From Nemertoderma westbladi (Eukaryota; Animalia; Xenacoelomorpha): 48,844 bases of DNA. Below, one piece after another: positions 6,862 through 45,600 of the stretch. The stretch covers positions 1 to 48,844 of the forward strand of contig JAUCBJ010003387.1 in the NCBI GenBank assembly GCA_032718475.1. The letters are read 5' to 3'. Below the pieces are notes generated by a model that saw nothing but the letters and a program-made list of their open reading frames with translations, searched no databases and had not been told where the DNA came from. Made by a program: the position numbers and the translations under genes. Positions within the stretch are counted from its first letter, which is position 1. Every line of letters starts with the position of its first letter.

Positions 6862-7128
6862 CTGGAATTTGTAAACACAGGCCACCGTAAGTTACCCTAA
6901 GTTACTTCTACTTGACACCGGGCTTGAAGAGCGGTTAATCTCGTGAAAGACATGGGGGATAGGGAGTTGTGGCATAGCATTCTTAAAGCACGCTGCATTG
7001 GGCTTACCAATTGTGTATTGCATGGTGGTGACAAAATGTTTTTGTTAAGCCAACATAGCATCTCAATGTGCAGTTTCAATGCAGCAGACCGATTATAGTA
7101 GGCCTAGTATAGTACTGTAGTAACTTGC

Positions 7129-14067: not shown

Positions 14068-15253
14068 GGGTAAATCTTTTCGACCTACGCGTAGGCCTAC
14101 GCGTAGCTACGCGTAGCTACGCGTAGCTACGCGTAGTTTGTAACTTCCATTCCTGTCATTTACCGGTAGGGCCAGACTTACTGCCTTTTTAACAACTACG
14201 CGTAGGTGTTTTAAAACTACGCGTAGTTATTTTGGAACTACGCGTAGGTATTTTGAAACTACGCGTAGGTGCTACGCGTAGCTACGCGTAGGTGCTACGC
14301 GTAGCAGTCCTGATAACAATGATTTTTCATTTCAGGTCCGGTAGGGTTGAGTTGTTAGGCAAGTATCGGTATATGTCAGGTATCTGATTATCAGACAAAT
14401 GTAATAACAGAATCGGAAACTCATATCTCTACATACAGCACTGGTAATAAATAATATTCGGCTCTTTCATATACAAACACAGAGGATGAATAAAAAGTAA
14501 ACTTAAAATTCACGTCTCATGATTCAAGTATCTTTGTTTCCATTGGATTATTTAAATATTGAATAGTAGTAAATAAAGCGACCAGTCTACCGGTGAAGAG
14601 GTTAAGCGAAAGCTGATAAATACTGCATATAATCAAATTGTTTGGTCAAATGACAAGTGCAACCAATCATGGTAGACAATTTAGTCTCCCCCTTCCCTTG
14701 TCAAGGGGTTAACATATTAAATACAGTATATCCTTGCCCTATCGTGAACAAAGGCAATAAAAAGCATAGAGAATCGATAAGAACCATCGGCCTATTTCCT
14801 TTGGAAACTATTTTTGAACTCTAAACATTAATTATTAACACATTTTACCGCCCGCAACGCATGAAGTGAAGAATATGTAGTTTTCGCGTATTCCTCTATA
14901 TAGAGTATACAGGTATAGGATACATTACTGTTGAAAGCATTTGATGGTTGTGGGTTGTTTATTGAACATACCGTATTGTGTCTTATTTTAGTACTGACTC
15001 GCTTGGAATACGTAAGCCTACTAATGATAAACGACGTATAGGCATAGTTATGGGTAGCACCTATGCGTAGGTCGCGTAGGACCTACGCGTAGCTACGCGT
15101 AGCTACGCGTAGCACCTACGCGTAGCTACGCGTAGCACCTACGCGTAGTTATTGTTAAAACTCTGAAACTGGTGATATATGACCCAATGTTGCGAACTAC
15201 GCGTAGCTACGCGTAGCTACGCGTAGCTACGCGTAGGCCGAAAAGATTTACCC
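14068..15253. mobile_element. Non-autonomous DNA transposon with palindromic CTACGCGTAG subterminal arrays (Merlin- or hAT-like)
   Basis: 15-bp TIR GGGTAAATCTTTTCG / CGAAAAGATTTACCC and an 8-bp TSD CAATACCA (14060-14067, 15254-15261). About 12 left and 10 right perfect copies of the 10-mer. Confidence 0.85.
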
Positions 15254-18730: not shown

Positions 18731-18999
18731 ATTACCAATTGATGGAAAGGAACAGGTTAAGGCCGGATTTTCTAACCAAAACAATAAACAGTCACTTTAC
18801 CAAATCAGGGAAAGGAGCAGAATACAGAGGCGGGATTTTCTAACCAAAAAAATAAACGATCATTTAACCAATTGAGGGAAAGGAGCAGGTTACAGAGACG
18901 GGATTTTCTAACCAAAACAATAAACGAACATTATCAATTGAGAGAAAGGAGCAGGTTACAGATGCGGGATTTTCTAACCAAAACAATAAACAGTCACTT
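18731..18999 (+). repeat. About 59-bp minisatellite, left part (split by the LTR element)
   Basis: Units ...GAAAGGAGCAGGTTACAGAGGCGGGATTTTCTAACCAAAACAATAAAC..., about 4.5 copies. Confidence 0.9.
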
Positions 19000-20257
19000 T
19001 GTTCGCGCTTTTAAGACCTTTGGCAGTTTAACCCGCCGAATCTATATGTCTTCTAGGTTATAAATCTACTCCAGCCTATGACAAGTATTGAACACCTATA
19101 ATAATTCTAACATTAGCCAAAGCCAGTCTGTGCGCGACCATTCACCCGCTGGATATACCCGGGAGACTGGATTTGGATGCTTTAATTTGATTGCGGTGCA
19201 GGCCTACCGTACTATTCGATTGATCGTTAATATATAATCTCTGATAAATATTATTCACTTTCGGGAAATATTAGCAGTTCCTTTAGGACGTGGCGCTCTA
19301 TCTATTTAAACAGAGCTATGACTTACACTATACACAACGGTATGTCTTATAGATCACCAAAGTGCATTCTTTAGGAAATGCTTTGTTACTCGGTCAAGCA
19401 CACACAGACTATTGCACACAACTGCACACTGAATTGCCGACATTCACTGATTTTAATCATATATAAAGAGAATAAGAACCGACATTTGTAGGGCCTATTA
19501 AGTAGCATTGAACTCACTACAAACCACGATAATGTATGTCGCAAATTGTTATATGTAACCGGTCTCTCTAACCTTAGTGTATCAAGAAGATTGGGTTTTC
19601 AGATCGTTATCAATATTCTTCCCAATAATAATATGTAAACGAATGATACAATTAACAACACAGTAAATAGCAGTAAATAATGCGGCGAAAAGCAGTTTAC
19701 GTCAGGGTGCTTAATCAGATGCCGAGGTGCAAAACCGTGGTGCTGTATCAAAACCGAGACCGAGGTGCAAAACCGAGATAACCGTTTGATGATCTTATAA
19801 TTAAAGACGCTCTAATGTCAGAAAACATTCCCCGGCCGGTGTTCTAGGCGTGGGGGAAACGTCAGTACTGAATCCTGTAATTCTGCTGTACAGTTTTTAC
19901 ACAAAGGGGGAAACTCTGATTGGTCGAATGGCAAAAAGCTCCACGTGGATACAGCTGATAGATGTCGTCATTTTGAGCTGAGCAGAACAAAGAACCAAGG
20001 CAAGGCTCCGGGCAAGCTACACGTGTAAAGCTCAGCCGTTAGCTGTCGTCATAGTAACGACACTGTTTCAAGAGGATCTAGGGCGTTGCGTCATAGAATT
20101 GCTAATTATGTCCTCTAAAGTACACATACAGAAGAAATAGCTTTTATGTCCCCTAAAAACACTGGTACAGCAATGACACGGCCTTTTATGCCTGCTAAAC
20201 CAACTACCGAGTACTTTACGGGGAAAATAACCGGGCAATTCCGCAAAAGCTTTTACA
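19000..20257 (-). repeat. 3' LTR (1258 bp)
   Basis: Direct repeat of 29497-30760. By eye there are about 5 substitutions plus 2-bp and 4-bp indels. Confidence 0.95.
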
Positions 20258-20265
20258 CCGCTCCC
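20258..20265 (-). promoter_or_regulatory. Polypurine tract (plus-strand primer) candidate
   Basis: The minus strand reads GGGAGCGG immediately before the TGT of the 3' LTR. Confidence 0.65.
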
Positions 20266-22429
20266 AGAAAATGGGATTTTAGTCTATAAAATATAAAAAA
20301 TCACAGTTTCTAAAATATAAAGATACTCTAAACAGTTAGTTTTTCTTGCGCGGACGGCATTTACGCAGTTTCTTGAGACTAGCAAGAGTCCTTTTCTCTT
20401 TGGGGCGAGCCACTTTACTAGGAGGGCTATAACTCCTGGGTGAAGGGTGCAATACAATTGCATCAGAAGGTTTAGGGTTACGGTCAGTGTCTCGTCCATT
20501 TCGATCTGCTTCTCCTCGAGCTGATTTTCCTCCGCTTGTCGTTGGACACGCTCGCCCAAAACTCTCGCAGAGAATAGGGTTGTCTAAACTCGATATCTTC
20601 TTAGAGATTCAAGATTTCCCAATCAAACTGAGATAAGCCAATTCGTTTACCGCTTGGACTTGCTGTTATAACTTACATTTATCTGAACAAACGCAGGTTT
20701 CCTTTCTGATCTTTGTAGAATAGCGTTTAACTCGTTTCGTACAACGCTCTCCTTCACCTTGATGAAGGGTTGTATCGCGTTAAACTGGGACGACCATACG
20801 GTTGAATGGTGATATTAGGTGTCCGCGTCCCAATACGGCTAGGTAAGATGGGCGGCTAGCTAGAGCTCGCTGGCGGAGTGTTACCGATTAATTGTTAGGG
20901 TAGCACTAGATCTTTGAACAGTGAATACAGCTCGTGAGGATCCGGGATACCATCAGAATCGAAAGACTGAGGTCTAATCAAGGAACGAGGTGGTCTGACC
21001 GAGTATTCCGGAACTATGATCGTAGGTTTACTCAAGGATCGTCTGAGTCGAGCGAGCGTAGGTGATATGTCGAACAAGTTTCGGTTTCCGTGGATGTTTA
21101 TGTCTTTCCGTTTATTAGTTGGGTCTAGGGCATTTATCGTAATAATACCAAAGACGCACGTCTGGTAGGGGAAACGCGGATGATATTTATTTGTTGTTAC
21201 AATGCTTCTATCAAGAATTCCAAATATACGTTAGAGTTACCGCGTCCATTTGTCTCTCTAATGTCTTTTCTTTCGAGTCGATTTCGAATAGAATTTTCGC
21301 ATTTGAATTTCAGTTTATCGTTCCGACTCCGCTGGGTAGGATATATGTTCGACATAGTCCGTATCGTGTGAATCGATAGAATGGCCAATGGTTAAGAAGT
21401 CCATATACGTACTATTACGATGCGTGTAGCGAGCGGTGAATTTTCCATAGTCCAATTCACTTCGAGGAAATCGTCGGTTCGATATAACGACCATCGTCCT
21501 CCGTAGTAGTTGGACTAGCGTCGCCGCGTATCAAACTATCAACAAACACTTGTAAAGGTAGAGTATATCGCTCCCCGATACCAAGACCATCTTCTATCAA
21601 CTCCGTTATATCTGCTATATATGAGTTTATTAATATTATAATGAGCTTATAATTAGGCTAGCGAGCGTCGCTCCCTACCCCAATCAGCCCCCGGACAGTG
21701 TACGATCCTCAGCGCAAATGTATCGTCGTCGCTGTGTTTTCCGCCAACGTGTAGCTACACAACGACAACGACACTAGCACGAGTCACTCCACTGTCCGTC
21801 CCAAAGGCTTAGATACACTTCAGGTTCTTACTGGAGAGTTAGGGTTACTTTCACAATTGCGACTCGCTACTGTAAACACACCTTAGTAGTAACATTCGCC
21901 TATAAACTCACAAATTCCACACACACAACTGTCACAAATTACACATACTCAGGCCATTTGTCCGTTAGTCAGTGCCTTCCAGAATGCCACGTTATTATTA
22001 TGTATCCTTGGATACTAGCAGTGCGCTATTTATTTCTTACAATGCAATGGGGCAAGCTTTCTATTGTTCTTTTTAACTTGCTTCTATTTCTAGCGTGGGT
22101 GTTACTATGGTGACATTATGGAAAGCTAGCGGTAGAATTAGGGTAATTCCAATGCATACAGATCTGGGATGCTATTTAATAGTAATTCTTTAATGGTCCA
22201 ATATCTCGTTTATACATGATTTTATAAATTTTATCGGCTATTGACTCATACATGGGAGATTCTCACACTCTAACACACTTAATAGGATGAAGCTCCGCTC
22301 CCGTGATCTATTAATTAATGGGATTTTGGGAATGTTATAAATTGCACAGAATGGCAATTTATCAAATTCATTAAAATATGAAATTAAATTTATTCCCTGA
22401 AATTTTATTATTTGATAGTACAATTGACA

Positions 22430-23258: not shown

Positions 23259-26200
23259 TTACGTTATGGAGTCCCTAGATATTTGTCGGATTAGGGAAGT
23301 GGTCGTAGGAAGAGTATCTTGCCTTCCATAGTTTCCGGACAGTTTTCGGTCTCTTTCCAGTAAACATAAACGACCAGCTGGGCGATTGAGTTGTTGTGTT
23401 ACTTTCTCCGCTCCCTTGGCCTGTCTAATCTCCGCCGTGGTAAGATGAGGAGGCCATTCTTCTTCTTCTTTACTTAAGAAGTCGGATCCACCTAACCAGC
23501 CTGGAGTATCTATCAGTTCTTGAGGAGTTGCTCCTCTGGAAGCGATGTCGGCTGGATTAATCGTCCCAAGGCAATGTCTCCATTGATCTACATTGGAGTT
23601 AATATCGTCATTATCTGAGGAGTATGGTGTTCCTTCAGTTAGTTCGTCCACCTCACTGCTCTCCACTTCCCATTCCTTTACTTGGTATACCTGTTGTTGA
23701 GGTAATCTCTCTTTGAGAGTTCTACGGGAAGGGCCAGTGAAGTACCAACCTACTCTAGTTCTTACCGCATAGGTTTGTAGTGGCTGTGGTTGAGCAGGCC
23801 GTTTCTCCAATGTCTCTAGCGCCTCATGCGCGTTTTGGCCGATGAGTATTTGCACTCCAGGATAATCTGTGTGGAATCGAGGTATCTTAAACTGCTGGAT
23901 GCTCTCGTCCTCGTCCCAGTTATAAGGTTCTACTTGGGTAGTAGCGAAGTTCTTTATAGCCACCATTTTTACTGACCTTATACTTTGTTCTCCTAATTTA
24001 TCCTGGGGGGTGGACAACGCACCTACATAGTAATCTGCCTTTATGGTAGATTTCCAAACCTGCCTAATTCCTGACATATTCAACTTAGTTCGGAATTTAG
24101 GTTGTCCAGTAAAGATGTCTTCGGCTAGTTCTTGATCGATGAATGTTCCTGTGCTGCCGGAGTCAAGGAGGGCGTTCACTATGTAACTTTTGTTAGGACC
24201 GTGAACTCTTACCTGCACTACAGGAAATTCTCTGATTCCTACATTGGAAGTTGGAGGTTTCCAAGATGGTTGTCTGTCAAAGGTAGTTGGGGGGAACTCA
24301 TTGTCGGTGTCCTTTTCATACGTAAGTGCTCGATACACTGCGGTATTTATTAGGTAACAGGATTCGTTGGCGTCGGAGAATTCGTCCGTATAGAATCCTT
24401 CCATCTCAGATTCTTGATCAGTGTCATTTACATCACTGAATTGGACATGTAGTTCGGGCTCACTTACCTGACTCGGGTTGTTTCGTTCGAATTCACTGTG
24501 TAACAAGATGTGATGTTTCGCACCGCACTTTGCACACTTTACGTCGGAGTAACAGGTTCGCCGTTGGTGTCCTTGTCTGAGGCAATTATAGCATAACCGC
24601 TTATCCCACATGACTTCACGTCTGTCTACCAGGGATTTCTTTAGGAATTCAGCACACACACTCAAACGGTGGGGCCCGTCGCACAGCGCACATTTTGGTT
24701 TGATGTTACTCACTTTACCTTGGGTAACGTTATGCACTCTCGTTCTTTCTTCGGGCTTTCTTCCGTGAATTATCTTAGGAGACGTAGGAGGAGTTGTTGT
24801 TACCTGTTCTCTCCTGTCACTGGTTCGAGACTTATATTTACTTACGTCTTTATAGGTCTTGTTGTCATAGTAAGATTTTGCTGTGTCTTTCCCGCTGTCC
24901 TCTTCTTGAGAAGCTTGGCTTTCGCCGTCGTCAGTAAAACACACTGGTGTTACCCTTCTCCTAGAAATGGGTTTCTCACTTACCTTATTTTCCGATGTTT
25001 TCTCTCTGGACTGCTTTATGAGTTGTAATTTTACTTCACTATCTAAGAAGGACATGAGATCAGCCATGGTAGGGCCTCGTCGTTGCTGCTCATTCATATA
25101 CAACACTTTCTTGTCCCAGCGTGTACATACTCCACCCTTTGGTAAAGTAGAGACTACGGCTCCAATAACCATGGAACTCTGATATTCCTGAGACTTACCT
25201 AACCAATCCAATTGTCTACAGATCTCCTGAATCTCATCGGAAAACTCTATAATCCCGCTACTAAGGAACTTTCGGGGGGCTACTAATTTTGCTTACAAAT
25301 ACTTAGCTATGTTATCCTTGTTACCATACCTGATGTTTAATGTATCCCAAACTTGTCTTAATCCATCTGGGTGTCCAATAAACTTTAACGCCATTAACTT
25401 GGGAGGTCCTTCCAAGCACTTGATGAGGAATCTAAGTTTCTCTCCGTTAGATAGTACAGAGTTCTGTATGCTATCTTTGTAATATTCATTAAAAGATAAC
25501 CATTTCATCTCATCTCCATTGAATTTGACGATTTCTCCCACTTTGACCGCTTGGCGGGCTTCTGTTCTAGCCATCTGACGCGTAAAGCTTTCTTGGGCCA
25601 TCGTGTTATTTAATATCGAATTATCGGTATATAAATTTCCCGGATTATTATCAGGTCTATAGGGAATATCATCAACAACAGGTTTATAATCACCCTTAAT
25701 AGGGTTTGCTATAGGAGTTTCTACTTCACTAGCAGTATAGATGCGTGTAGGCTCCACACCTTGCGCATGTAATACTTCAGACCTAACAGGTTGACACAAT
25801 GTTACAGGGGGTATTGGTATACCCTTTTGTATATTGACTAATTTGTCGCGTTCTAGTGCGATACTTTGCTGCACTTCTTGCAATTCTAACATACTTTCCC
25901 TTACTGTTCCCTTGAGTTGGTGGACAGTCTCCTGCATCTGTCCGAGCAGGAGATTCATTCCCCGCCGTCCCTCCTCTACCCACTCGACCGCCGAAGCGGG
26001 AGTCGCCAACATTGTAGCGGGCAGACACGGGACGACGGGAGACAAATCTTTGATTTCTCTCTCGGCATCCAGGACAGGGATATTCTCATGGACTGTTCTA
26101 CCGGGTACAGGCAGTGTAGTACTGTGTAAAGGGAATTTAGAGTTAAGCTCTGGAAGTACAGGGGTCTCTAGCACAGGAGTGGCTTTGAGAACGACAGGCC

Positions 26201-27278
26201 TAATTATTTCAGGCTCATCAACTATCGTAGGGAGTCTTTTGACCTTAATAATTTGGTCTGTGGGTTCTGTACTACCTAAGTCTGTGCTAGCTAGTTGTCT
26301 TCTAACAGCTGGGGGCAAATCAGGCAATTTGTGACGGTGAGATGTTTTTCTACGCCTGCTTAGACGAGATCTATTTCCTCCGCCTTCAGGATCGGTGGTC
26401 TCGCCTTCTTCCGATGATGTGTATTCTTGGCGTTTGGGAGTAGATCGACTCATCATCTGCATTTGACTAGCAGTTAACTGTTTATTTATGTTGTCTTGCG
26501 TCTCTTGCAGATTTTCCAACTCCAGTTGGGTAGTCTCCTCAGACGCTCTCCGTTCTGCTTCTGCCACTGCCCTTGCCTCTGCTACTGCTGCTGCCTTTCG
26601 ATCCTCTATCCGTCTTTTCTTTACTTGTTCTTCCTGGACTCTAGCGAGGCGGAGTTTTTCATCAAATTTAGCTTGGTTCGCAGCTAACATTTCCGCATCG
26701 ATTGCGTCCAACACAAGCTTGGTTCCTTCACCATTAGGGCGAAGTCCAGACAGTCGTCTCCTCAACTCTTCGTCTCCTAGGAATCGCTGATAGTCTGACA
26801 GATAAATATCAATAGCGTCTCTCTTTCGCGGCTCCCCCGCTGTCACTTCGCTTTCTTCTTGAGAAGAAGTGGCGTCGGTTGATTCTTCAAAGGTTGGCCG
26901 CTCATCATAAACCGTATCCGCCATCTTCGCTCCGCGTTTGGGCGTCCGCTCAACAGTATCTGAACTACTGGAGCTATCGGGCCACTGAGAACTAGGTTCT
27001 TGGCTAGGAGGTTGCTGCTGTTTGATAGCTGCTTCTTGCTCCCGCTTGACTTGGGCCCGAGTGCCGATGATAGACCTACGCTGTTCTACTAGCCTAGGGT
27101 CTGACACTACTACTGTAGGGATGGCCTTTCTTACAATAGTAGGTGACTTAGACTTGGATCTAGGATGTTCTATACTTTGATCTTGGTCACAGATCCTTTT
27201 AATACGCTGTCTAAGTCTAATACTCATTCTAACACTTTCTAAGAGACTATCTGACAGTGATTGGGTTGCGTCTGACAT
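23259..27278 (-). pseudogene. BEL/Pao gag-protease(-RNase H tip) polyprotein, 1340 codons with one in-frame TAA (25293-25295); RT and integrase absent
   Basis: The two track ORFs are in the same frame, with 27 open codons between them. Present: DUF1759-type Gag (KFNGDEMKWLSF...LSNGEKLRFL...RYGN), three zinc knuckles (CALCDGPHRLSVC, CYNCLRQGHQRRTC, CAKCGAKHHILLH), protease ALLDSGS...ILIG...TRVGW, then directly WRHCLGTINPADIASRG. Confidence 0.9.
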
Positions 27279-27409
27279 GTTTGTTTGTACAGTTGAATGC
27301 CTACTGCTATATTACAGTTAAAGCAAGTCTAGTAATTCAGTATCACTGTTAGCCTAATAATTAATTACCGATACTGCTACTCAGTGTAGCGTGATATATA
27401 TAATATATT

Positions 27410-28616: not shown

Positions 28617-29143
28617 AAACGCTGGCAGACTACTATCAAGCCTAAATAAACTACAGTATGTGCAGATTCCAAAATGGTTAGTTAGTATGCGTTCTAACAC
28701 GGTAGTACGACTTATTCTTTTGGAGGGGGTTGACCTTACAACTCAAGATGCCCCAACTTACTAACTGGCACTTTATCGGACAGACTCTACACACACCGCA
28801 ATCTCTCCAGACCCAACAACAGTCAGACAACAATCCGGCCTACAAAATATCTGAGTAATAACTATTACGGTACCTGAACAGACCACACAAACAAACACAG
28901 GCTAAAACGCTGGCAGACTACTATCAAGCCTAAATAAACTACAGTACATGCAGATTCCAAAATGGTTAGTTAGTATGCGTTCTAACACGGTAGTACGACT
29001 TATTCTTTAGGTGGGGATTGACCTTACAGCTCTGGCTGCCCCTACTTCCTAACCGTACTTTATCGGACATACACTCTACATGCACTGCAATCCGTTCAGA
29101 CCTAACAACAGTCAGAACAACAGTCCAGCCTACAAATTATCTG
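28617..29143. repeat. Two direct repeats, 288-bp period, in the 5' leader
   Basis: AAACGCTGGCAGACTACTATCAAGCCTAAATAAACTACAGTA... starts at 28617 and at 28905. Confidence 0.85.
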
Positions 29144-29485
29144 TACAATCTGAGCAGGGTTACACGCCTTCTGCTCAATATTATCCTACTAGTAAATAAG
29201 ACTGACAGAAATAGACCTAAGTAAAATCCCAATAAAAACCAGGCGTCCCCGATTTAATATCGAGACCTACCGGTATATAATTATCAAAATCGAATAATAC
29301 TGCTGTACCTGTACTGCTGTAAGTACCGGTCCGGATGATCAGGCAGTCAGGCCTACAGATTACCAGTCGACCGGTACTTTAGTCTTGATCGCTTACGCCG
29401 CAATCAAGATCCTTCCAATGGTTATTGTTCTTACCAGAACAATATTAAACTGTATTTATTGCCTACACTGCAATCAAGAATTTTA

Positions 29486-29496
29486 CAAACGGTTAT
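29486..29496 (-). promoter_or_regulatory. Non-tRNA primer-binding site candidate (ATAACCGTTTG), complementary to LTR 30277-30287
   Basis: It abuts the 5' LTR with no gap, lacks the TGG start of a tRNA PBS, and has an exact 11-nt reverse complement inside both LTRs. Confidence 0.6.
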
Positions 29497-30760
29497 TGTT
29501 CGCGCTTTTAAGACCTTTGGCAGTTTAACCCGCCGAATCTATATGTCTTCTAGGTTATAAATCTACTCCAGCCTATGACAAGTATTGAACACCTATAATA
29601 ATTCTAACATTAGCCAAAGCCAGTCTGTGCGCGACCATTCACCCGCTAGATATACCCGGGAGACTGGATTTGGATGCTTTAATTTGATTGCGGTGCAGGC
29701 CTACCGTACTATTCGATTGATCGTTAATATATAATCTCTGATAAATATTGTTCACTTTCGGGAAATATTAGCAGTTCCTTTAGGACGTGGCGCTCTATCT
29801 ATTTAAACAGCGAGCTATGACTTACACTATACACAACGGTATGTCTTATAGATCACCAAAGTGCATTCTTTAGGAAATGCTTTGTTACTCGGTCAAGCAC
29901 ACACAGACTATTGCACACAACTGCACACTGAATTGCCGACATTCACTGATTTTAATCATATATAAAGAGAATAAGAACCGACATTTGTAGGGCCTATTAA
30001 GTAGCATTGAACTCACTACAAACCACGATAATGTATGTCGCAAATTGTTATATGTAACCGGTCTCTCTAACCTTAGTGTATCAAGAAGATTGGGTTTTCG
30101 GATCGTTATCAATATTCTTCCCAATAATAATATGTAAACGAACGATACAATTAACAACACAGTAAATAGCAGTAAATAATGCGGCGAAAAGCAGTTTACG
30201 TCAGGGTGCTTAATCAGATGCCGAGGTGCAAAACCGTGGTGCTGTATCAAAACCGAGACCGAGGTGCAAAACCGAGATAACCGTTTGATGATCTTATAAT
30301 TAAAGACGCTCTAATGTCAGAAAACATTCCCCGGCCGGTGTTCTAGGCGTGGGGGAAACGTCAGTACTGAATCCTGTAATTCTGCTGTACAGTTTTTACA
30401 CAAAGGGGGAAACTCTGATTGGTCGAATGGCAAAAAGCTCCACGTGGATACAGCTGATAGATGTCGTCATTTTGAGCTGAGCAGAACAAAGAACGTACCA
30501 AGGCAAGGCTCCGGGCAAGCTACACGTGTAAAGCTCAGCCGTTAGCTGTCGTCATAGTAACGACACTGTTTCAAGAGGATCTAGGGCGTTGCGTCATAGA
30601 ATTGCTAATTATGTCCTCTAAAGTACACATACAGAAGAAATAGCTTTTATGTCCCCTAAAAACACCGGTACAGCAATGACACGGCCTTTTATGCCTGCTA
30701 AACCAACTACCGAGTACTTTACGGGGAAAATAACCGGGCAATTCCGCAAAAGCTTTTACA
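29497..30760 (-). repeat. 5' LTR (1264 bp)
   Basis: The minus strand reads TGTAAAAGC...GCGCGAACA. It contains a CCAAT box (about 30418-30422) and TATAAG (about 30293-30298). Confidence 0.95.
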
Positions 30761-31103
30761 CACTTTACCAAATCAGGGAAAGGAGCAGGTTACAGAGACG
30801 GGATTTTCTAACCAAAACAATAACAGAATAAACGATAACATTACCAATTGAGAGAAAGGAGCAGGTTACAGAGGCGGGATTTCCTAACCAAAACAATAAA
30901 CGATCACTTAATTAATAGAGGGAAAGGGGCAGGTTACAGAGGCGGGATTTTCTAACCAAACAAGAAACAGTCACTTTACAAAATGAAGGAAAGGAGCAGG
31001 TTACATAGGCGGGCCTTTCTAACCAAAACAATAAACGGTCACTTTACCAAATCAGGCAAAGGAGCAGGTTACAGATGAGGCGGGATTTTCTAACCAAAAC
31101 AAC
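30761..31103 (+). repeat. About 59-bp minisatellite, right part
   Basis: About 6 units. Removing the element restores the unit sequence CAGTCACTTTACCAAATCAGGGAAAGG. Confidence 0.9.
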
Positions 31104-32024
31104 CGGTCAGCCGGTAGGCCTACCAGTACCATTTAAATGGTAGGCTACACAGTCAGACAGTAGGCCTACAGCAGTACCGGTGCCGGTAGCGGTACTAAAA
31201 TACAGAAATGCCTGCTTTATACAGTTATACCTACATCTGTACATACAATGCAGCAAAATAGTGCTATATATACTAATACCGGTACTGATAGCCTGAGAGA
31301 ACAGCAGTAGAGAAACCGGTAGCATGGAACCTAACATTAGATTTTTGGAGGACATAAAAAATAAAAAAAAGGACAAAAAAAGGATTTAAACGGACAATAA
31401 AAATTATTGCTTTAAAAATTTGCACCACCATACAGCCATATGGGCCTACAGAGCTGGTACCGTTCAGTACTGCGCCTTCTACTGCTGTACTGTACACTGT
31501 GCAACTACAGAACTACGCCAACCTTCAGACCTTCTGCTGTTGGGATAAACTTACAGACTTATCCACGCACAGACGCGTATGCCGTACGTATCCACGTACG
31601 GTATTCAGTCTGTCAGTATTTCAGTATTTGTGTACGGGTACATATCCACGTAGGCCCTATCTATATTCTATATACATGATATATATCTGTATAATACTGA
31701 ATTACATTCAGACATTGAGCGATTTCACATACGCGTAGACGAATACTGTTTCCTGATTGGTCCAGATGAGATACGAGATAAATGTCATGCAAAATGCTTA
31801 GGCCTAAGTCTGTCGCCGGTAGTTAACGCCTTAACGGTGTTTGTACAGCAGTACGAGTACAGTGCTGCAGTGGTATAGTTCAGTAGTTATTGCAGTGCAC
31901 AGTGCAGTATTGGTATGGCCTGACGGCAGTGCGGTACCTTTTTGTACTGATTTGAATACAGAATGATTGATAGACAGATAGACCCTACTTCAGTACTGAT
32001 CTAAGGCTAAGCACCAGTGCACAG

Positions 32025-33394
32025 TAGGGCGGTGCGTTTTTTACTTTTTTTTCGATTTCATTGTTCTACCGGTGCACAAAAGTTGCCAAAATGCCAAATG
32101 GTAAAAAAATAAGGCAAAAAAAATTTCTTTAAATTTCGTCTATATCTTCACGGATCCCAAGAGGGTTGAAATTTTGTGCCATCGCGATGCACCATAATGA
32201 AATGTATAACAATATAACACATTGATGAAAGATCAATGACTCAAAAAAAAAACTTCCTGCATGCATCAAATGTCATCAAATGGGTCCAAACTTAGTTAGA
32301 TACCAAAATTTTAATTTTTGGGTCAAGGGAACTAGTGCCACAGGCACATGGCCAGAACCTACCATTTGGCACAAGCAATGATTATTCTCAATTTTCGCGA
32401 TGGCCAACTTTGAGTTCTCCTACTGCATTCATATTATGCTCATTAGAACTGCAATGACCGATTTAGTGGGGGTAGACACCTTCAAAACAAACATAGAGCT
32501 TATAGTTCTTGAGATATCGCAGAAAATGTGAAGTACGGCACAAGTCTACATTACCGCCTTGATGTGATATGGACAAATACACTATAAATGATATTTTGAA
32601 TTATCTCAAGGAATCAAGAATAGACACATCACAGAAATGATCGATATAGTGGGTGAAGACACCTTCAAAATAAGAGTAGAGTCATTAGTTCTTGAGTTAT
32701 TTTACAAAATGTCAAGACTATGTCCACCAATTACTACTTGATATTGAGTTGACCCATTCCACACATTTTGTACAAAAACTATAGTGAATTAATCACTACT
32801 CTTTAATTTTGAAGGTCTCTGTATATACTAAATCAATTTGTTGCAGTGATATGTATATTTTTGATGCCTTAAGATAAATAGAAGTAACATTTTTGTGTAT
32901 TTGTCTATAAATCATCAAGGCAGTGATGTTGACTTGTGCCGTACTTAACGTTTTCTGTAATATCTCAAGAACTATACGCTCTATGCTTGTTTTGATGGTG
33001 TCTACCCCCACTAAATCGGTCATTGCGGTTCTAATGAGCATAATAATAATGCCGTAGGAGAACTAAATGTTGTCCATCACCAAAATTGAGAATAATCATC
33101 ACTTGCGCCAAAGAGTAGGTTCTGGTCATGTGCCTGTGGCACTACTTCCCTTGTTCCAAAAATTAAAATTTTGGTATCTAACTAAGTTTGGACCCATTTG
33201 ATGACATTTTGATGCATGCAGGAAGTTCTTTTTTGAGTCATTGATCTTTCATCAATGTGTTATATTCTTATAAATTTCATTATGGTGCATCGCGATGGCT
33301 CAAAATTTCACGCCTTATTTTTTTACCATTTGGCAACTTTTGTGCACTGGTAGAACAATGAAATCGTAGAAAAAGTAAAAAACGCACCGCCCTA
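32025..33394. mobile_element. Second foldback non-autonomous hAT-type transposon
   Basis: TAGGGCGGTGCG...CGCACCGCCCTA termini, TSD GTGCACAG / GTGCGCAG (7/8), and about 540-bp inverted arms. Confidence 0.88.
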
Positions 33395-33608
33395 GTGCGC
33401 AGTTGTCACAGGTAGACCTACTTCTGTTTTCTGTACTTGCAGACTTGCTTTACCTGTTTACTTCACACTCCATCTGTCCATTGCAGCATTGCTGCACTGC
33501 TCCAACACTCTTAGACTTTTCCGGTTTACCTTCTCACCGATCCCGATTCCCTGATTCAGAGAGACAGGTCAGCAGCAGGTAGCAATTCCAGAATTCTGAA
33601 AAGTTAAA

Positions 33609-34958
33609 ATGGCTGGCGAGGGAAAGTTACAACACATGGAGGTTGATTATTCTGACACGGTGGATGCAACGCTACCACAATGTGAAGAAATGACAGCTCG
33701 CGGTAAACTGAACGATGCTATAGAGGAATTACAATCGCTGGAAAAGAAAACCCGATTAGGTGGAGACATGCCCTCGACATCGCGAATCCTCGTCGCCATA
33801 GTGAAACTATGTCGGCAACGCAACGAATGGGACCTATTGAACGAGCAGCTGGTAAAACTCAGCAAAAAGCGAAGCCAAATTAAGCAATCCGTTACGAAGA
33901 TGGTCCAAGCGGGGTGCAGTTACGTGGACGAAACGCCGACGGCAGAAGTCCGACTCAGACTAATACAGACTCTACTAACCATTACAGAAGGGAAAATCTA
34001 CGTTGAGATCGAACGCGCTAGATTAACTCGGACTCTCGCGGAGATTAAAGAACGAGAAGGCGACATTGATACGGCGGCGGAAGTACTGCACGAACTACAA
34101 GTGGAGACCTTCGGATCCATGGAGAAGCGGGAGAAAACCGAGTTCCTACTGGAACAGATGCGGCTGTGTTTAGCGAAGAAGGATTTCATACGAACCGGAA
34201 TAATTTCGAACAAAATTTCCACGAAAGTCTTCCAGACCGCGGACATGCGAGATCTGAAGCTCAAGTACTACCGTCTCATGATTGAGCACGGTCTACACGA
34301 GGACAGCTTCCTCAAGGTCTCCACTTACTATTACCACGTCTTCAGCACTTTTGTCGACAGCGGAGAGGCGGACAAAGCCAGGGATACATTGAAGTGCGTC
34401 ATTCTCTTCTGTGTGTTGGCACCGTACGACAACGAACAACGCGATCTAACGCATCGCGTTAAAGAGTTGAAGCAGACGGAGGAGTTACTTACCTCATACC
34501 GGGAGATTCTAGAGTTGTTCGTGAAACCGGAGTTGATAGTGTGGCGCGACGCGTCCACAATGCATGGTCCATCACTCCGGTCGGATCCGTCGGCGCCGAA
34601 CGTGTTCGACGGATCGGAGGCCGGTGAGACGCGCTGGCGGAAGTTGCACGACCGCGTTGTGGAGCACAACATCCGGGTGCTCGCCGCGTGTTACACGCGA
34701 GTGCGGCTGGACCGCATGGCTAAACTCCTGGACCTCGGGGTGGACCGCGCGGAGGAGTTCCTCTCCGAACTGGTGGTCGCCAAGACGATCTACGCGCGGT
34801 TGGATCGACTCGACGGGGTCGTTGTGTTCCAGCGTCCTAAAGATCCCGCCACCGTGCTCAATCAGTGGTCCGACGATCTAAACATCTTGATGGCTCATCT
34901 CAATAAGATAACTCATTTGGTCAACAAAGAGGAGATGGTTCACAGACCAATCCCATAA
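33609..34958 (+). CDS. PSMD12: 26S proteasome non-ATPase regulatory subunit 12 (Rpn5), 449 aa, single exon
   Basis: Motifs LEKKTR, ITEGKIYVEIERARLT, LQVETFGSMEKREK and the PCI-domain RVVEHNIRV, ending VNKEEMVH. Confidence 0.97.
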   Translation: MAGEGKLQHMEVDYSDTVDATLPQCEEMTARGKLNDAIEELQSLEKKTRLGGDMPSTSRILVAIVKLCRQRNEWDLLNEQLVKLSKKRSQIKQSVTKMVQAGCSYVDETPTAEVRLRLIQTLLTITEGKIYVEIERARLTRTLAEIKEREGDIDTAAEVLHELQVETFGSMEKREKTEFLLEQMRLCLAKKDFIRTGIISNKISTKVFQTADMRDLKLKYYRLMIEHGLHEDSFLKVSTYYYHVFSTFVDSGEADKARDTLKCVILFCVLAPYDNEQRDLTHRVKELKQTEELLTSYREILELFVKPELIVWRDASTMHGPSLRSDPSAPNVFDGSEAGETRWRKLHDRVVEHNIRVLAACYTRVRLDRMAKLLDLGVDRAEEFLSELVVAKTIYARLDRLDGVVVFQRPKDPATVLNQWSDDLNILMAHLNKITHLVNKEEMVHRPIP

Positions 34959-36080: not shown

Positions 36081-37292
36081 TCACAGAGTCAATAAAAGAA
36101 AGGTGATGAAATAAATTGCTGATATAACACAATATGTTAAAGGGAAAAACCATCTCGAGAACTTATCAACATCAACGGCAGATATATTGCCTGTGTTATA
36201 GTTTGTGTTACCATCAGAACGTAGGTTAAGTTGACATACAACAGTGAATTCGAACAAAGTACCGAAAACAAACACCATGCCAATCATAAAATACGCGTCT
36301 AAGGCCTTTATATAAGAGACATCGGGGAAGTGGCTGTAGGAACTGACAGTAACAGTTAGTAGAGATAGTATGGTTGTAATTGATAATGCCGCCCTTGCTG
36401 GGGTCGCCCTAGTATCAACCCAGAACCCGCTCCAAGACATTGCAACGATCAGATTGAGTGGAATGTAAGCCTTGATTACATAAGCAGCTGTAACTCTTCT
36501 TAGCTCGATGTATACGTCAAGTTGAGAGTAATAATCGTGAGCGACTGTTTTCGTAAAAGTTACAGAATCAGAGGTTAAACTGTAATGAGTAGACAAGTCA
36601 ATATATTCGTTGACGATTTCCGCGCCAGGGTTCGAGTTGGTCAGCGCGAAGAAGTCGAATACTACGTCTCGTTCAGGGTAACTGTAGCTTTGGAAGGTTA
36701 TTGGACAAGTCTGAATGTCCAGAGGAAAATAAGTCAAGTTGAAAGTACAGGAAACATGGGTGCTTACTCTGGTGGACAGATGGACCGTACCATTCGGCCA
36801 CAGAACAAGCTGCTGAGGCCTCTGATCGCTAAGAACTTGGCTCTTAAATTCGTTTGTTACATGTAAATCTGGAGTCCATATCAATCTCTCGAAGCTTGGA
36901 TTCAAGGTTATTGATTCAGTTCGCGTTGAGAATTCGTTTGTAAAATCTAGTCGTTTGTCGATCCATATCATGCGAACGTAGAGGACAGACTTGAAGGTCA
37001 TGGAGTGGTCTTCGACGTTGTTAACGTTGTATACTCCTATGTTTACACCAACATTAACAGCCGAGTCCCCACCAGCTCTCTGTAACATATAGCCGCTGTG
37101 CTGGGACTTAACCCTTTCTGTGATAATATCTACTACTTCTTTATCAGTGGCCCCGCTATCGGCCACTGAAAGAGTTAATACAAATATATAACATGAATAA
37201 ATAACAATGCAATACTGTTTAGCGAAATTTAATAACATTGTTGAAAAATAAGAACATATAAGTTTGGTGATACCGTGATTTATAACTTTCAT
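36081..37292 (-). CDS. Anion-selective Cys-loop receptor subunit (GABA/glycine receptor-like), single exon
   Basis: Signal-peptide-like stretch, WTPD, Cys-loop CTFNLTYFPLDIQTC, M1 MSWSGFWV, PAR motif before M2, SYIKALDAY and a C-terminal M4. The true start may be the second ATG (37238). Confidence 0.92.
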   Translation of the reverse strand: MKVINHGITKLICSYFSTMLLNFAKQYCIVIYSCYIFVLTLSVADSGATDKEVVDIITERVKSQHSGYMLQRAGGDSAVNVGVNIGVYNVNNVEDHSMTFKSVLYVRMIWIDKRLDFTNEFSTRTESITLNPSFERLIWTPDLHVTNEFKSQVLSDQRPQQLVLWPNGTVHLSTRVSTHVSCTFNLTYFPLDIQTCPITFQSYSYPERDVVFDFFALTNSNPGAEIVNEYIDLSTHYSLTSDSVTFTKTVAHDYYSQLDVYIELRRVTAAYVIKAYIPLNLIVAMSWSGFWVDTRATPARAALSITTILSLLTVTVSSYSHFPDVSYIKALDAYFMIGMVFVFGTLFEFTVVCQLNLRSDGNTNYNTGNISAVDVDKFSRWFFPLTYCVISAIYFITFLLLTL

Positions 37293-39209
37293 ATAGTTTA
37301 TCGGGCGACAAATAATTTTTCCCTATGACATACTGTACTGCATCATTTGTTACTGTAATATAAAGTCCAACACAGTTTACCTTAACACAATATCATGACT
37401 TATTCAATTAAAACATTCAGTCATCGTATAAAAATACTGTAATCTGAAAACAATATTTAACCAGTTGTAACAGGTTTCACAGGAAGATTTTGTGGTTGAT
37501 TTTAAATCATTAACTTACAGTATATGGACATTAATAGACATTCATAAACCAGTAATTATTATAATTTATTATGTTGAAAATATGTCCTTTCATGTTCTTA
37601 GAAAGATTCATTAAAATTCCGTGACATGTGGAACACATGTTGTTAGGGTTTACTCAAAGTTATAATAATTGATTACAATACTTACATAGTTCGTTCGTTT
37701 ATGGATTGCGTGAATGCGACCTTCACAAGCGAAACTAAATAAAAGAATAGCTACATCATTGTTGTTAGTTAGCTTTCATGCCATACAACAGCTACTTGAA
37801 GTAGGCCTACATACAATATTATATAATGCTACCCTCAATGTGAATAATGTTAACTTCGGGAGTCAAAACACAGTTGATACCTAGCCTTGAGGGATAACTC
37901 GTTAAATATGACATTAATATTAATTTATTGTAAGATAAATGGATGACTAACTGGCAGTGTAAATATAATAATATGCTTCATTAAGTTCTCCGGATGGCTC
38001 CTCTCTATATGCTGTAACCTGTAAGGCAGTGAATCTAACTCCTAAAATGTCGAACACTACTTAACTGTCCAACACGTTCCCTTACTCCAGAAGAAGAAGA
38101 CGGACTTTCCCATTTCGGAGTTTGCAGTGGCCCGGAGATTCCCGGGTGTCGTGGCGGCCTAGACCATGGGCCGGCCCTCTTCCAGTTGGAGAGGTACACG
38201 TAGGAAGGGCTACTGCGGGACAGTGATGCTAATGGATGGCAAAAACCATTTTATTTTCACCGCCAATAAAATAACCTTGCCTGCAAGTGGTGGGGGGGGG
38301 GGGGGGGGGGGGGGGGGTGTTAGGAATATCTGGAAATGCAATCTCGGCTAATTAACAAAGTAAATTTTAAAGGTTATACTTTGATTTTTGCTCGCAATTA
38401 GCTGTTATTTACGTGATTTCTCCTTGCGTTGTTTCCCTTGCCTCTACCTGGAAGTTGTACTGTACAAAGAAAAGTTTCTGACTCAAATCTGATTTTAAAC
38501 CACTGGTATGCCGCCTGGTAGTACATTTTCATCCCCTAATCAACTCTTTCACTTTCTAGTGAGCAAAACATATTTTCCTTAATTAAAAAGAAAAACATTT
38601 CGTGTTGGTTGTAAAATAATGAGATGGTGCCGCTTGATAGACCACAATACTGTTTGAGAGTTATGCTTGTCGTGTATAACATTGAACAACGCCAAGATGA
38701 AAGATGATTACTATCATTTAATTTTTATATATTTTATTAAACATAAACTTTGAGACGAACTATTTGCTTTTAAGTCTTGTAATCCGACACAAGATAAAGT
38801 ATTAGGCATTTTAATATCTGACCACCAGCATGATGGATTGCGACTTGCAGTACCGGTATATAATTTTATTCGAAAATTGATGTCATATTTACGTCGAAAT
38901 TTATATTATAATAAAAAAAAACAGATCTACATTATCGATAATTTGTAATAGAATATTTACCAACATAATCAATGTAACATATCTCCTTATGTATTTATTG
39001 CAATCAAAATTTGGTATTCTATAAATTGAAATTAAGGGGTTAACTTTCCTCATAAGGTTATATTTAACATACATCACTATATATATGGGCTACGGAAAAG
39101 TATGTTTCAATTTTCGAATAAAATACTGAAAATAAACACTAATAATTAATTAGCTCTCTGCGGATATTTTTCACACTACATCTCACAACAATCTACGCCA
39201 ATTGGATGT

Positions 39210-39830
39210 CTAATTGAGACCTTTATCTTTGGTCTCCGCGGTTTTCTCCAGTGCTAATTTAGTTGCCTGTTTAACTAACTCCTTAGAATGCTCGCTACGA
39301 TCGTGTATCCTTTGTCTGATCGTCTGCTTCGGATTAAACTTCGCTTCTAAGACTTGCAGGAGCCCTAACTCCGCTTTCTTTGCGTTCTTTCTGTATTTCC
39401 GGATCCCGAAAGCTTCTAAAACCCGAACGAAACCGTTGCAGTTGGAATAAATCCACGCCTGTTTGCTAACGTCAGTAAACTTCTGTTGACTCACGGAGTA
39501 CAAACATTTCTCTTCCGCTACGAGGTAGTCTTGTAGAGTTATATTCCTCGAATAAGTTGTAAAAGTTCGCTCTTTTAAGTCCACCACTGATTCCTCTAAG
39601 ACGTATACGTAGTTCGGTAATCGACGGAACACGGAACGGCCCCACTTCGGTATCGGACTAGTTTTACTAATGATCCGTTTGGTTATGAGTTTCTCGTCGG
39701 AAACTCTTCTATCTACAACGTCCTCTGAGACAACGTGTTTGCTGTACTTATTGGGATAGCGGCACCAAATAGTGGGGAATACTCGAGTCCAGTCAAACTC
39801 TAGAGCAGTAAAAACCGCATGGAACTTCAT
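39210..39830 (-). CDS. PRELID1: PRELI domain-containing protein 1 (Ups1-like mitochondrial lipid transfer), 206 aa, single exon
   Basis: WCRYPNKYSKHVVSEDV, VYVLEESVVD, EEKCLY and AWI; the pattern fits PRELID1 better than PRELID3. Confidence 0.88.
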   Translation of the reverse strand: MKFHAVFTALEFDWTRVFPTIWCRYPNKYSKHVVSEDVVDRRVSDEKLITKRIISKTSPIPKWGRSVFRRLPNYVYVLEESVVDLKERTFTTYSRNITLQDYLVAEEKCLYSVSQQKFTDVSKQAWIYSNCNGFVRVLEAFGIRKYRKNAKKAELGLLQVLEAKFNPKQTIRQRIHDRSEHSKELVKQATKLALEKTAETKDKGLN

Positions 39831-39990
39831 TGTCAGTAATTGCAGTCTTCAGGTCTTAGTACTGTAGTAAGGATAAAGTAAAACCAAGAACGAGAATACC
39901 TAATTCTGTAATTCCTGTAATTTGTATACCTAGGTAGGAGGAGTTATCCGGTTATGGTTATTCCAGTATTCGGATAGGAATACTTTCGCC

Positions 39991-40445: not shown

Positions 40446-41354
40446 TGTCACAAGGAAATCAGCCCCCCCTAGAATATGCCCCCCGGGGCATTATTTCCTA
40501 GGATATTATGTCCCCCCGGGCAATTTTTCCTAGGAAATTTAGCCCGGGGGGGCATTTTCTCCTTAGGAAATAATGCCTCCCGTCAGGAAAATTAGCCCCC
40601 CTCAAAAGTCTGAAAACTGGTACGATACCGGTCTGCTGGTAGCCACTTTTAATCTACCAACTGCAGAACTTGTAATAGTTGGAAGAATAGTACGGTACCA
40701 GTCTGCCGGTAGGTAAGCAGGTAAGGCAGTAAGGGATGTAGAACAGCATACTGAAGTATGTAAGTCAGTAGGCTACTGTAGTAAGTACTGGTATAACAGC
40801 AGTGCGAGTGTGTGGTGTTGTGTGGGCGCCGAGCAGCTCCAAGCTTTTTTAAGTCTGTAACCTGCTCCTTTCCCTGATTTGGTAAAGTGATTGTTTATTG
40901 TTTTGGTTAGAAAATCCCACCTCTGTAACCTGCTCCTTTCTCTCAATTGGTAATGTTATCGTTTATTGTTTTGGTTAGAAAATCCCGTCTCTGTAACCTG
41001 CTCCTTTCCCTGATTTGCTAAAGTGACTGTTTATTGTTTTGGTTAGAAAATCCCGCCTCTGTAACCTGCTCCTTTCCCTCAATTAGTTAAATGATCGTTT
41101 ATTGTTTTGGTTAGAAAGGCCTGCCTCTGTAACCTGCTCCTTTCCTTCATTTGGTAAAGTGACTGTTTATTGTTTTGTATAATTTTTGTAAGTTTTAGTA
41201 GTAATAAGTTTTGTTTATTGTATAATTCAGGGGGGGCATAATTTCCTAAGGGGGGGCATTTTTTCCTAGGGAAATTTGCCCGGGGGGGCATTTTTTCCTA
41301 GGAAAATATGCCCCCCCGGACACATTTCCCGGGGGGGCATATTTTCCTGTTACA
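40446..41354. mobile_element. Non-autonomous Ginger-like DNA transposon carrying the 59-bp minisatellite
   Basis: TGT...ACA ends and a 4-bp TSD CCGT (40442-40445, 41355-41358). Repetitive inverted arms (AGGAAA..GCCCCCC / GGGGGGC..TTTCCT) flank about 5.5 reverse-oriented 59-bp units at about 40855-41178. Confidence 0.75.
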
Positions 41355-42690: not shown

Positions 42691-45600
42691 TTACAGTTAT
42701 AGGACCAACTCCTACCCTACCCTACCCCCACTACTGTAGGCCTATAATATTACAGTTATAGGACCAACTCCTACCCTACCCCCACTACTAGGCCTATAAT
42801 ATTACAGTTATAGGACCAACTCCTACCCTATCCCCACTACCCACTTCTGAAGGCCTATAATATTACAGTTATAGGACCAACTCCCACCCTATCCCCACTA
42901 CTGTAGGCCTATAATATTACAGTCATAGGACCAACTCCTACCCTACCCCCACCCCCCACTACTGTGACTTAAAGTTATAGGACCCAACTCCTACCCTACC
43001 CCCACTACCCACTACTGTAGGCCTATAATATTACAGTTATAGGACCAACTCCTACCCTACCCCCACTACCCACTACTGAAGGCCTATAATATTACAGTTA
43101 TAGGACCAACTCCCACCCTACCCCCACTACTGTAGGCCTATAATATTACAGTTATAGGACCAACTCCCACCCTACCCCCACTACTGTAGGCCTATAATAT
43201 TACAGTTATAGAACCAACTCCCACCCTACCCCCACTACTGAAGGCCTATAATATTACAGTTATAGGACCCAACTCCTACCCTACCCCCACTACCCATTAC
43301 TGAAGGCCTATAATATTACAGTTATAGGACCAACTCCTACCCTACCCCCACTACCCACTACTGTAGGCCTATAATATTACAGTTATAGGACCAACTCCCA
43401 CCCTACCCCCACTACTGTAGGCCTATAATATTACAGTTATACAGTAGGACCAACTCCCACCCTACCCCCACTACTGTAGGCCTATAATATTACAGTTATA
43501 GGACCAACTCCCACCCTACCCCCACTACCCACTACTGTAGGCCTATAATATTACAGTTATAGGACCAACTCCCACCCTACCCCCACTACTGTAGGCCTAT
43601 AATATTACAGTTATAGGACCAACTCCCACCCTACCCCCACTACCCACTACTGTAGGCCTATAATATTACAGTTATAGGACCAACTCCCACCCTACCCCCA
43701 CTACCCACTACTGTTGGCCTATAATATTACAGTTATAGGACCAACTCCCACCCTACCCCCACTACCCACTACTGTTGGCCTATAATATTACAGTTATAGG
43801 ACCAACTCCTACCCTACCCTACCCTCACTACTGTAGGCCTATAATATTACAGTTATAGGACCAACTCCCACCCTACCCCCACTACTGTAGGCCTATAATA
43901 TTACAGTTATAGGACCAACTCCCACCCTACCCCCACTACTGTAGGCCTATAATATTACAGTTATAGGACCAACTCCCACCCTACCCCCACTACCCACTAC
44001 TGTTGGCCTATAATATTACAGTTATAGGACCAACTCCTACCCTACCCTACCCCCACTACTGTAGGCCTATAATATTACAGTTATAGGACCAACTCCCACC
44101 CTACCCCCACTACCCACTACTGTTGGCCTATAATATTACAGTTATAGGACCAACTCCCACCCTACCCCCACTACCCACTACTGTAGGCCTATAATATTAC
44201 AGTTATAGGACCAACTCCCACCCTACCCCCACTACCCACTACTGTTGGCCTATAATATTACAGTTATAGGACCAACTCCCACCCTACCCCCACTACTGTA
44301 GGCCTATAATATTACAGTTATAGGACCAACTCCTACCCTACCCCCACTACTGTAGGCCTATAATATTACAGTTATAGGACCCAACTCCTACCCTACCCCC
44401 ACTACCCACTACTGTTGGCCTATAATATTACAGTTATAGGACCAACTCCCACCCTACCCCCACTACCCACTACTGTTGGCCTATAATATTACAGTTATAG
44501 GACCAACTCCTACCCTACCCCCACTACCCACTACTGTAGGCCTATAATATTACAGTTATAGGACCAATTCCTACCCTACCCCCACTACTGTAGGCCTATA
44601 ATATTACAGTTATAGGACCAACTCCTACCCTACCCCCACTACCCACTACTGTAGGCCTATAATATTACAGTTATAGGACCAACTCCTACCCTACCCCCAC
44701 TACCCACTACTGTAGGCCTATAATATTACAGTTATAGGACCAACTCCCACCCTACCCCCACTACTGTAGGCCTATAATATTACAGTTATAGGACCAACTC
44801 CACCCCCACTACCCACTACTGAAGGCCTATAATATTACAGTTATAGGACCAACTCCTACCCTACCCCCACTACCCACTACTGTAGGCCTATAATATTACA
44901 GTTATAGGACCAATTCCTACCCTACCCCCACTACTGTAGGCCTATAATATTACAGTTATAGGACCAACTCCTACCCTACCCCCACTACCCACTACTGTAG
45001 GCCTATAATATTACAGTTATAGGACCAACTCCTACCCTACCCCCACTACCCACTACTGTAGGCCTATAATATTACAGTTATAGGACCAACTCCCACCCTA
45101 CCCCCACTACTGTAGGCCTATAATATTACAGTTATAGGACCAACTCCCACCCTACCCCCCACTACTGTAGGCCTATAATATTACAGTTATAGGACCCAAC
45201 TCCTACCCTACCCCCACTACCCACTACTGTAGGCCTATAATATTACAGTTATAGGACCAACTCCTACCCTACCCCCACTACCCACTACTGTAGGCCTATA
45301 ATATTACAGTTATAGGACCAACTCCTACCCTACCCCCACTACCCACTACTGTAGGCCTATAATATTACAGTTATAGGACCAACTCCTACCCTACCCCCAC
45401 TACCCATTACTGAAGGCCTATAATATTACAGTTATAGGACCAACTCCTACCCTACCCCCACTACCCACTACTGTAGGCCTATAATATTACAGTTATAGGA
45501 CCAACTCCCACCCTACCCCCACTACTGTAGGCCTATAATATTACAGTTATAGGACCAACTCCCACCCTACCCCCACTACCCACTACTGTAGGCCTATAAT

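Follow-up and report, generated by a model that had tools for sequence, protein, structure and literature searches.

We describe in Nemertoderma westbladi (Xenacoelomorpha) a BEL/Pao retrotransposon in which a segment of the element's own RNA, not a tRNA, probably primes minus-strand DNA synthesis. Four direct observations carry the case, namely the anatomy of the element, an exact complementarity between its primer-binding site (PBS) and its own long terminal repeat (LTR), family-specific pairing of the same kind in distant relatives, and the lack of such pairing in a control clade with TGG sites. The window, by which we mean the whole stretch of 48,844 nt analysed here (contig JAUCBJ010003387.1), carries the element on its minus strand, where it occupies 11.76 kb from 30760 to 19000; all element features given below lie on that strand. 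This copy represents the simple, one-piece form of a young family that is present in very high copy number, since 4,367 contigs of one sequencing run fall on 1.46 kb of it.

The 5' LTR (29497-30760, 1264 nt) and the 3' LTR (19000-20257, 1258 nt) are of the TG...CA type and 99.6% alike, differing by 5 substitutions and 2 small indels in 1265 columns. They are flanked by an intact 5-bp target-site duplication, AAGTG, whose upstream copy (30761-30765) lies within a 68-nt tandem repeat and whose downstream copy is found at 18995-18999, and a polypurine tract, GGGAGCGG (20258-20265), adjoins the 3' LTR. A single in-frame stop splits the two coding frames. The first (25296-27311) encodes gag with a DUF1759 domain (Pfam match, E 2.2e-7), and the second (23262-25292) holds the remainder of gag with its CCHC knuckles and the protease, followed by a short RNase H piece of the Pao type (E 4.6e-15). 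Profile matches cover the gag-protease part and the RNase H piece; the BEL/Pao profile jumps from position 632 to position 1175, which indicates that the reverse transcriptase has been lost from this copy, and profile comparison found no integrase in the element. The best homologs of the element protein are BEL/Pao polyproteins, and 38 of the 39 long ones contain the Pao domain (PF05380). The DUF1759 match, these homologs and the profile matches bear out the BEL/Pao identity proposed in an earlier, sequence-only reading of this DNA, and the LTR type, the target duplication and the polypurine tract are likewise those of the superfamily. The copy is therefore a recently inserted, non-autonomous BEL/Pao retrotransposon. 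Its 2.2-kb leader (29496-27279) holds an internal duplication of 149 nt (28617-28765 and 28905-29053). The approximately 3 kb that follow the RNase H piece (23260-20258) contain short frames only, and the one frame scanned there, at 20898-21230, gave no Pfam match.

The 5' LTR ends in GCGAACA and the PBS, ATAACCGTTTG (29486-29496), starts at once, with a gap of 0. It lacks TGG, the first TGG beyond the LTR being at leader position 61, and the 18-nt site for the 3' end of a host tRNA that the ICTV description gives for BEL/Pao is not present at the PBS of the element; the window contains no tRNA genes. The exact complement of the PBS, the candidate self-primer CAAACGGTTAT, lies at LTR positions 474-484 (30277-30287) and again in the 3' LTR (19778-19788), once per LTR and at no other place in the window. 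The pairing covers exactly 11 nt and does not extend to 12, and the duplex has a predicted energy of -12.7 kcal/mol. A scan for a longer, splice-joined primer at offsets 0-9 gave none better than the contiguous 11 nt. Dinucleotide shuffling of the LTR produced the complement in 10 of 20,000 trials, and 2 of 9,228 other internal 11-mers had a complement in the LTR, so that the overall chance of the match is about 2-5e-4. Hence both the gapless non-TGG site and its complement in each LTR, as claimed in the sequence-only reading, hold true, and the rough chance of 3e-4 given there is in line with these counts.

A diverged second copy of the LTR end, the PBS and the leader arm described below is found at 29382-29430. 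Its PBS-like site (29425-29415) pairs at 9 of 11 positions and has no LTR match above 6 nt, the leader arm of this copy likewise pairs with the arm in U5, and other copies of the family skip 74-107 nt at this duplicate region. Directly after the 11-mer, an array of CGGT-type units (30276-30220) varies strongly between copies; contig cover falls in this array, and the 11-mer and the part upstream of it remain covered.

Predicted RNA folding places stems on both sides of the PBS. A 17-nt leader arm (29461-29477), located 8 nt past the PBS, pairs with LTR positions 1061-1077 (29684-29700) in a U5-leader stem of 16 pairs and 1 mismatch, with a pair probability close to 1 for 14 of the 16 pairs. 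On the LTR side, a branched stem resembling the U5-IR (29500-29634), closed by 29634-29629 with 29505-29500, ends 3 nt before the LTR end; its probability is 0.54 in the free fold and 0.85-0.99 when the PBS is held open. The local fold from LTR position 1050 to leader position +45 has a z score of -3.4, and only 1 of 200 shuffles was as low. Opening the PBS would cost 1.8 kcal/mol, against the -12.7 kcal/mol of the primer duplex. The predicted arrangement is thus a PBS held open between the U5-IR-like stem and the U5-leader stem, with the 11-mer pairing across them in a pseudoknot that resembles a pretzel. Ordinary folding cannot show this pairing because it crosses the U5-leader stem; when the whole region is folded, the 11-mer and the PBS do not pair with each other, which is expected for a pseudoknot yet lends it no support. 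Among the variants listed (40 of 120), both of those in the LTR arm of the U5-leader stem keep its pairing (29696, G-U to A-U; 29698, C-G to U-G), the variant at 29616 strengthens the inner stem, the deletions at 29506 and 29510 fall in an unpaired bulge, and those at 29542 and 29556 break a weaker U5 hairpin. U5 stems also flank tRNA-primed sites in retroviruses, and for this reason the fold alone does not tell self-priming from tRNA priming.

We then considered relatives of the element. One BEL/Pao clade, sampled by alignment, yielded 78 metagenome loci (the best of 527 matches), of which 43 had flanking repeats and 15 had the LTR end in both copies; after removal of L040, which is not an LTR, and of L049, which belongs to the family of L054, 13 distinct true or likely LTR ends were retained. 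This sample and the control clade described below were both picked by alignment and do not constitute a random draw of BEL/Pao. None of the 13 loci has TGG in the first 8 nt. Nine of them pair over 11-16 nt with their own LTR at an offset of 0-4, an extent reached by 0-1 of 200 shuffles in each case, and these correspond to seven lineages if L006, L019 and L076 are counted once. In eight of the nine (L001, L006, L016, L019, L022, L054, L055 and L076), the pairing spans a GT-AG intron of 77-345 nt; L068 pairs in one piece, and L054 also has 11 contiguous nt. Four loci fall short, with 10 nt in L059, 8 nt in L043, 6 nt in L024 and low complexity in L053. Pairs made across families reached 11 nt in 8 of 182 combinations, 6 of them inside the lineage of L006, L019 and L076, and other leader positions did so in 3 of 572. 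The self-pairing of the relatives is family-specific.

The donor is GTAAG in six of the eight splice-joined relatives, the scan having required GT or GC only, and GTRAG makes up 3.8% of the GTs in these LTRs. The paired part of the PBS starts with GT in nine of the ten relatives with at least 10 pairs (AG in L001) and with AT in the window element. L055, with an intron, and L068, without one, belong to one small clade, and one-piece primers like that of the window therefore occur beside split ones. An extended scan of 13 further loci without a known LTR end, one of which was too short, reached at least 11 nt in 9 of 12; we kept it out of the main count since the number of trials is far greater (nulls reaching 10 of 30); the cases of L037 and L051 look doubtful. 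The idea that these PBSs are simply palindromes was rejected, only 1 of 11 being significant.

The control clade comprised 23 loci, 13 with flanking repeats, of which 12 are true LTRs from 6 families. All 12 true-LTR loci carry a near-invariant TGG site, and their best self-pairing is 4-6 nt, none exceeding 6 nt. The window element is 19-25% identical to the sampled loci and sits on a long branch. FastTree placed it on either side in two runs, and we do not name a sub-lineage because its placement changed between them. In the IQ-TREE analysis (29 rows, 514 columns) it was not part of the 98% branch containing the TGG loci, and AU tests, with groups named after the tree was seen, rejected its joining either the tight TGG clade (p 0.021) or the tight self-pairing clade (p 0.011). 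Judged from these sequence comparisons, the element is best called a separate deep BEL/Pao lineage, and what is seen in the relatives may be carried over to it by analogy, not through close kinship. No close protein relative was present in the sets searched, the best being 27% identical over 513 columns; a family-specific DNA pattern had 0 matches in metagenome contigs, and viral contigs contained no BEL/Pao relatives. Intact BEL/Pao elements of animal type (L082-L099) were noted in contigs filed as bacterial genomes. They probably represent host DNA within bacterial assemblies, and L082, in a Wolbachia record, is possibly a real insertion.

The position of the 11-mer with regard to the transcript start was also considered. 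Upstream of it are found a CCAAT box (30418-30422) at -135, a CRE half-site at -76 and the motif TATAAG (30293-30298) at -11, leaving a gap of 5 nt; the sequence-only reading had placed the CCAAT box at about 130 nt and TATAAG at 5-10 nt. TATAAG could be a TATA-like box or provide a splice-acceptor-like AG, and the interval 25-35 nt upstream of the 11-mer holds no TATA-like box. RNA is expected to start some distance past a TATA box; judging from this spacing, were TATAAG a real one, the start would lie about 20 nt further on and the 11-mer would be missed. For Tf2, transcripts that start downstream of the LTR are described as not reverse transcribable (PMC5341516, in excerpt). In the three relatives with a TATA box that far upstream (L068, L076 and L035), it precedes the primer by 124-165 nt, and in all ten relatives with at least 10 pairs the primer comes before the first poly(A)-type signal. 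L016 has TATAAG at -11, exactly as in the window element. The stretch TTATAAG plus 5 nt before the primer is common to the window (30299-30288) and to the distant L016 (LTR 234-245). In 8 of 11 lineages an AG precedes the primer by 4-9 nt, the background being 28% (P 0.0025, for an interval chosen after looking). Instead of a TATA box, the TATAAG of the element may accordingly represent a splice acceptor, or else a signal that the elements share. Because the primer spans a splice junction in eight relatives and follows a TATA box by 124-165 nt in three, the primer is likely to be internal to R, downstream of the cap and not at the very 5' end.

Variation within the element family bears on the same question. 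In four single contigs, drawn from three runs, the LTR end is followed by a variant PBS, changed at positions 10-11 in two of them, at 6, 10 and 11 in another, and at 6 and 9-11 in the last; positions 1-5 and 7-8 are constant in these four contigs. At the LTR site, one contig of another run keeps TATAAG and the 5-nt spacer and has changes at 6, 10 and 11 in register, equal to one of the PBS variants. The same contig is also changed at position 1, the 3' base of the primer, and would mismatch every PBS variant seen. These variants are unphased and come from contigs of different runs, none of which spans both the PBS and the 11-mer. The two sets of variants, matched at set level, are suggestive, and changes at positions 6 and 9-11 of the PBS would not be expected with a fixed tRNA primer.

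According to the mechanism that we favour, the U5 fold would keep the PBS open and the 11-mer would pair with it across the stems. The element RNA would be cut right after ...GGUUAU, presumably, by analogy with Tf1, through RNase H that an autonomous partner supplies in trans, and the reverse transcriptase of such a partner could then extend the cut end, starting at the last base of the LTR. As in the relatives, the primer would lie inside R, downstream of the cap; in most of these it would be assembled by splicing, and in the window element it would be ready-made, in one piece. The core of the proposal made in the sequence-only reading, priming by the element's own RNA without a tRNA, gains from the pairing in nine of 13 relatives and in none of the 12 TGG controls, and from the pretzel-like predicted fold. 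Its further claim, that the mechanism is the same as in Tf1 with the first 11 nt of the transcript as primer, has become doubtful. This strict form, included in the self-priming reading as a sub-case, would have the transcript start at or a few bases from 30287, with the 11-mer as the capped 5' end cut between bases 11 and 12. The equal length of 11 nt, the gapless junction with the LTR end and the pretzel-like fold are as described for Tf1 (PMC7175516 and PMC10085805, both in excerpt). However, there is no TATA-like box at 25-35 nt, a start further upstream is suggested by the CCAAT box at -135 and the CRE half-site at -76, and the primers of the relatives, which span a splice junction or follow a TATA box at a distance, do not fit a capped 5' end, so that we regard the strict form as unlikely.

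Other explanations do without a self-primer altogether. The pairing could have been selected for a structural role, such as packaging, dimer formation or an RNA switch hiding the PBS, with another RNA acting as primer; the 11-mer is partly paired locally, self-priming is deduced here from sequence, and the R-U5 stretch after the 11-mer is long, at 780 nt, the well-supported relatives having 74-278 nt. Nevertheless, the start of the complement is in every case 0-4 nt away from the end of the LTR, the place at which a primer's 3' end has to lie if it is to set that end, and the site differs by family, which would call for a different host RNA in each; such a role seems to us quite improbable as the full explanation. 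We give even less credit to the view that half of a tRNA or a tRNA fragment acts as primer, as happens in certain copia lineages, and that the match to the LTR arose by chance or from a local repeat. In Osser, Bryco, Gymco-II and Bianca, half-tRNA priming does lead to sites that lack TGG (PMC6317226, in excerpt), and the last 7 letters of the 11-mer open the variable CGGT-type array. Against it stand a chance of 5e-4 and a PBS that varies within the family and from one family to the next; in the TGG control clade, by contrast, a single site is common to all 6 families. Finally, the true PBS might have been lost in a defective copy, leaving decayed sequence in its place. The deletion of the reverse transcriptase and integrase and the duplicated relic of the LTR end and PBS would suit such a history, which is nonetheless hardly credible, given that the 99.6% alike LTRs and the intact target duplication imply that this very RNA was reverse transcribed recently, and that the same kind of site is found in other copies of the family. 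Self-priming by the element's own RNA therefore remains our preferred reading.

The surroundings of the element give some information on the host. Four genes in the window are each contained in one uninterrupted frame: PSMD12 (33600-34958, plus strand), an RMD1-like gene (11398-12390, minus), a PRELI-like gene (39210-39848, minus) and a ligand-gated ion channel (36081-37322, minus). For PSMD12, the matches span 98-100% of the frame, are mostly 448-462 aa long and show at most 58% identity to the PSMD12 of other animals, which marks the host as a divergent animal. The host appears to be poor in introns, and a primer without one would be in keeping with this. In a broader reading to which we assign an even chance, an old and large animal branch of BEL/Pao would work without a tRNA, using an internal R primer that is spliced in most families and ready-made in intron-less ones; the deep, separate lineage of the window element, in a host with intron-less nearby genes, would then show that the trait is ancestral to that half of the family or has arisen again. 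The 68-nt tandem repeat family occurs at 18732-19000, 30827-31102 and 40854-41177, the element being inserted inside one array and another, inverted array lying 10 kb away, and a satellite of about 82 mixed 61- and 54-nt units covers 42691-47627. Two long inverted-repeat elements, mutually related and MITE- or foldback-like, are located at 3744-5158 and 32013-33406, pieces of reverse transcriptase in two overlapping frames at 7108-8180 (plus strand) belong to a separate element, and the 10-nt unit CTACGCGTAG, which is palindromic, recurs in clusters at 14073-15236.

In the literature searched, a scope outside which fall subscription journals, Repbase, GyDB and supplements, we found no paper on self-priming in BEL/Pao. 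A term look-up in the available parts of PMC3118150 and PMC554778 returned no mention of PBS, primer or tRNA, and the available parts of PMC8220671, PMC3601003 and PMC12451622 contain nothing on BEL/Pao self-priming. Self-priming has been described for Tf1/sushi elements and Tcn1 (PMC4600332 and PMC6317226, both in excerpt) and predicted for the TAR copia elements (PMC6317226, in excerpt); it is proven only for gypsy elements of the Tf1 type and predicted for one copia lineage. If our reading is true, self-priming exists in all three LTR superfamilies, the elements that use it may be freed from control by tRNA fragments, and it becomes clear why PBS finders based on tRNAs would miss them. In the relatives, the start of reverse transcription would moreover be tied to host splicing.

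Among known systems, the element is closest in its priming region to Tf1/Tf2 of Schizosaccharomyces pombe, Tj1, Tosmo and the Tf1/sushi chromoviruses (Tcn1) of the Ty3/gypsy superfamily, with which it shares an 11-nt, LTR-complementary PBS adjoining the 5' LTR and the lack of a tRNA site (PMC7175516 and PMC4600332, both in excerpt). The Tf1 primer consists of the transcript's 11 initial bases, which RNase H cleaves off between bases 11 and 12 (PMC7175516, in excerpt), and it forms a central duplex with one further duplex on each side of the PBS (PMC10085805, in excerpt), a three-duplex layout that is predicted for our element too. Unlike the Tf1/sushi group, however, the element has BEL/Pao gag and RNase H, no chromovirus proteins and a primer-to-PBS loop of 780 nt, and its primer is likely internal to R instead of being the first 11 bases. 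With the TAR elements of plants (Houba, Osr-1; Ty1/copia), it has in common that self-priming is predicted from sequence outside Tf1/sushi; those elements belong to the copia superfamily, and no LTR intron is mentioned for them in the available part of the source (PMC6317226). The DUF1759 gag, the CCHC knuckles, the protease, the Pao-type RNase H piece, the TG...CA LTRs and the 5-bp duplication are shared with the Belpaoviridae (Semotivirus; BEL, Pao, Tas, Suzu, Sinbad). The ICTV profile describes this family as tRNA-primed, with an 18-nt PBS for tRNA-Arg or tRNA-Gly (PMC8742986), and our element departs from it in having no such site and in its long branch. As a tRNA PBS is also missing in 13 of 13 relatives of intact type, it is the description of the Belpaoviridae, not the membership of the element, that looks too narrow.
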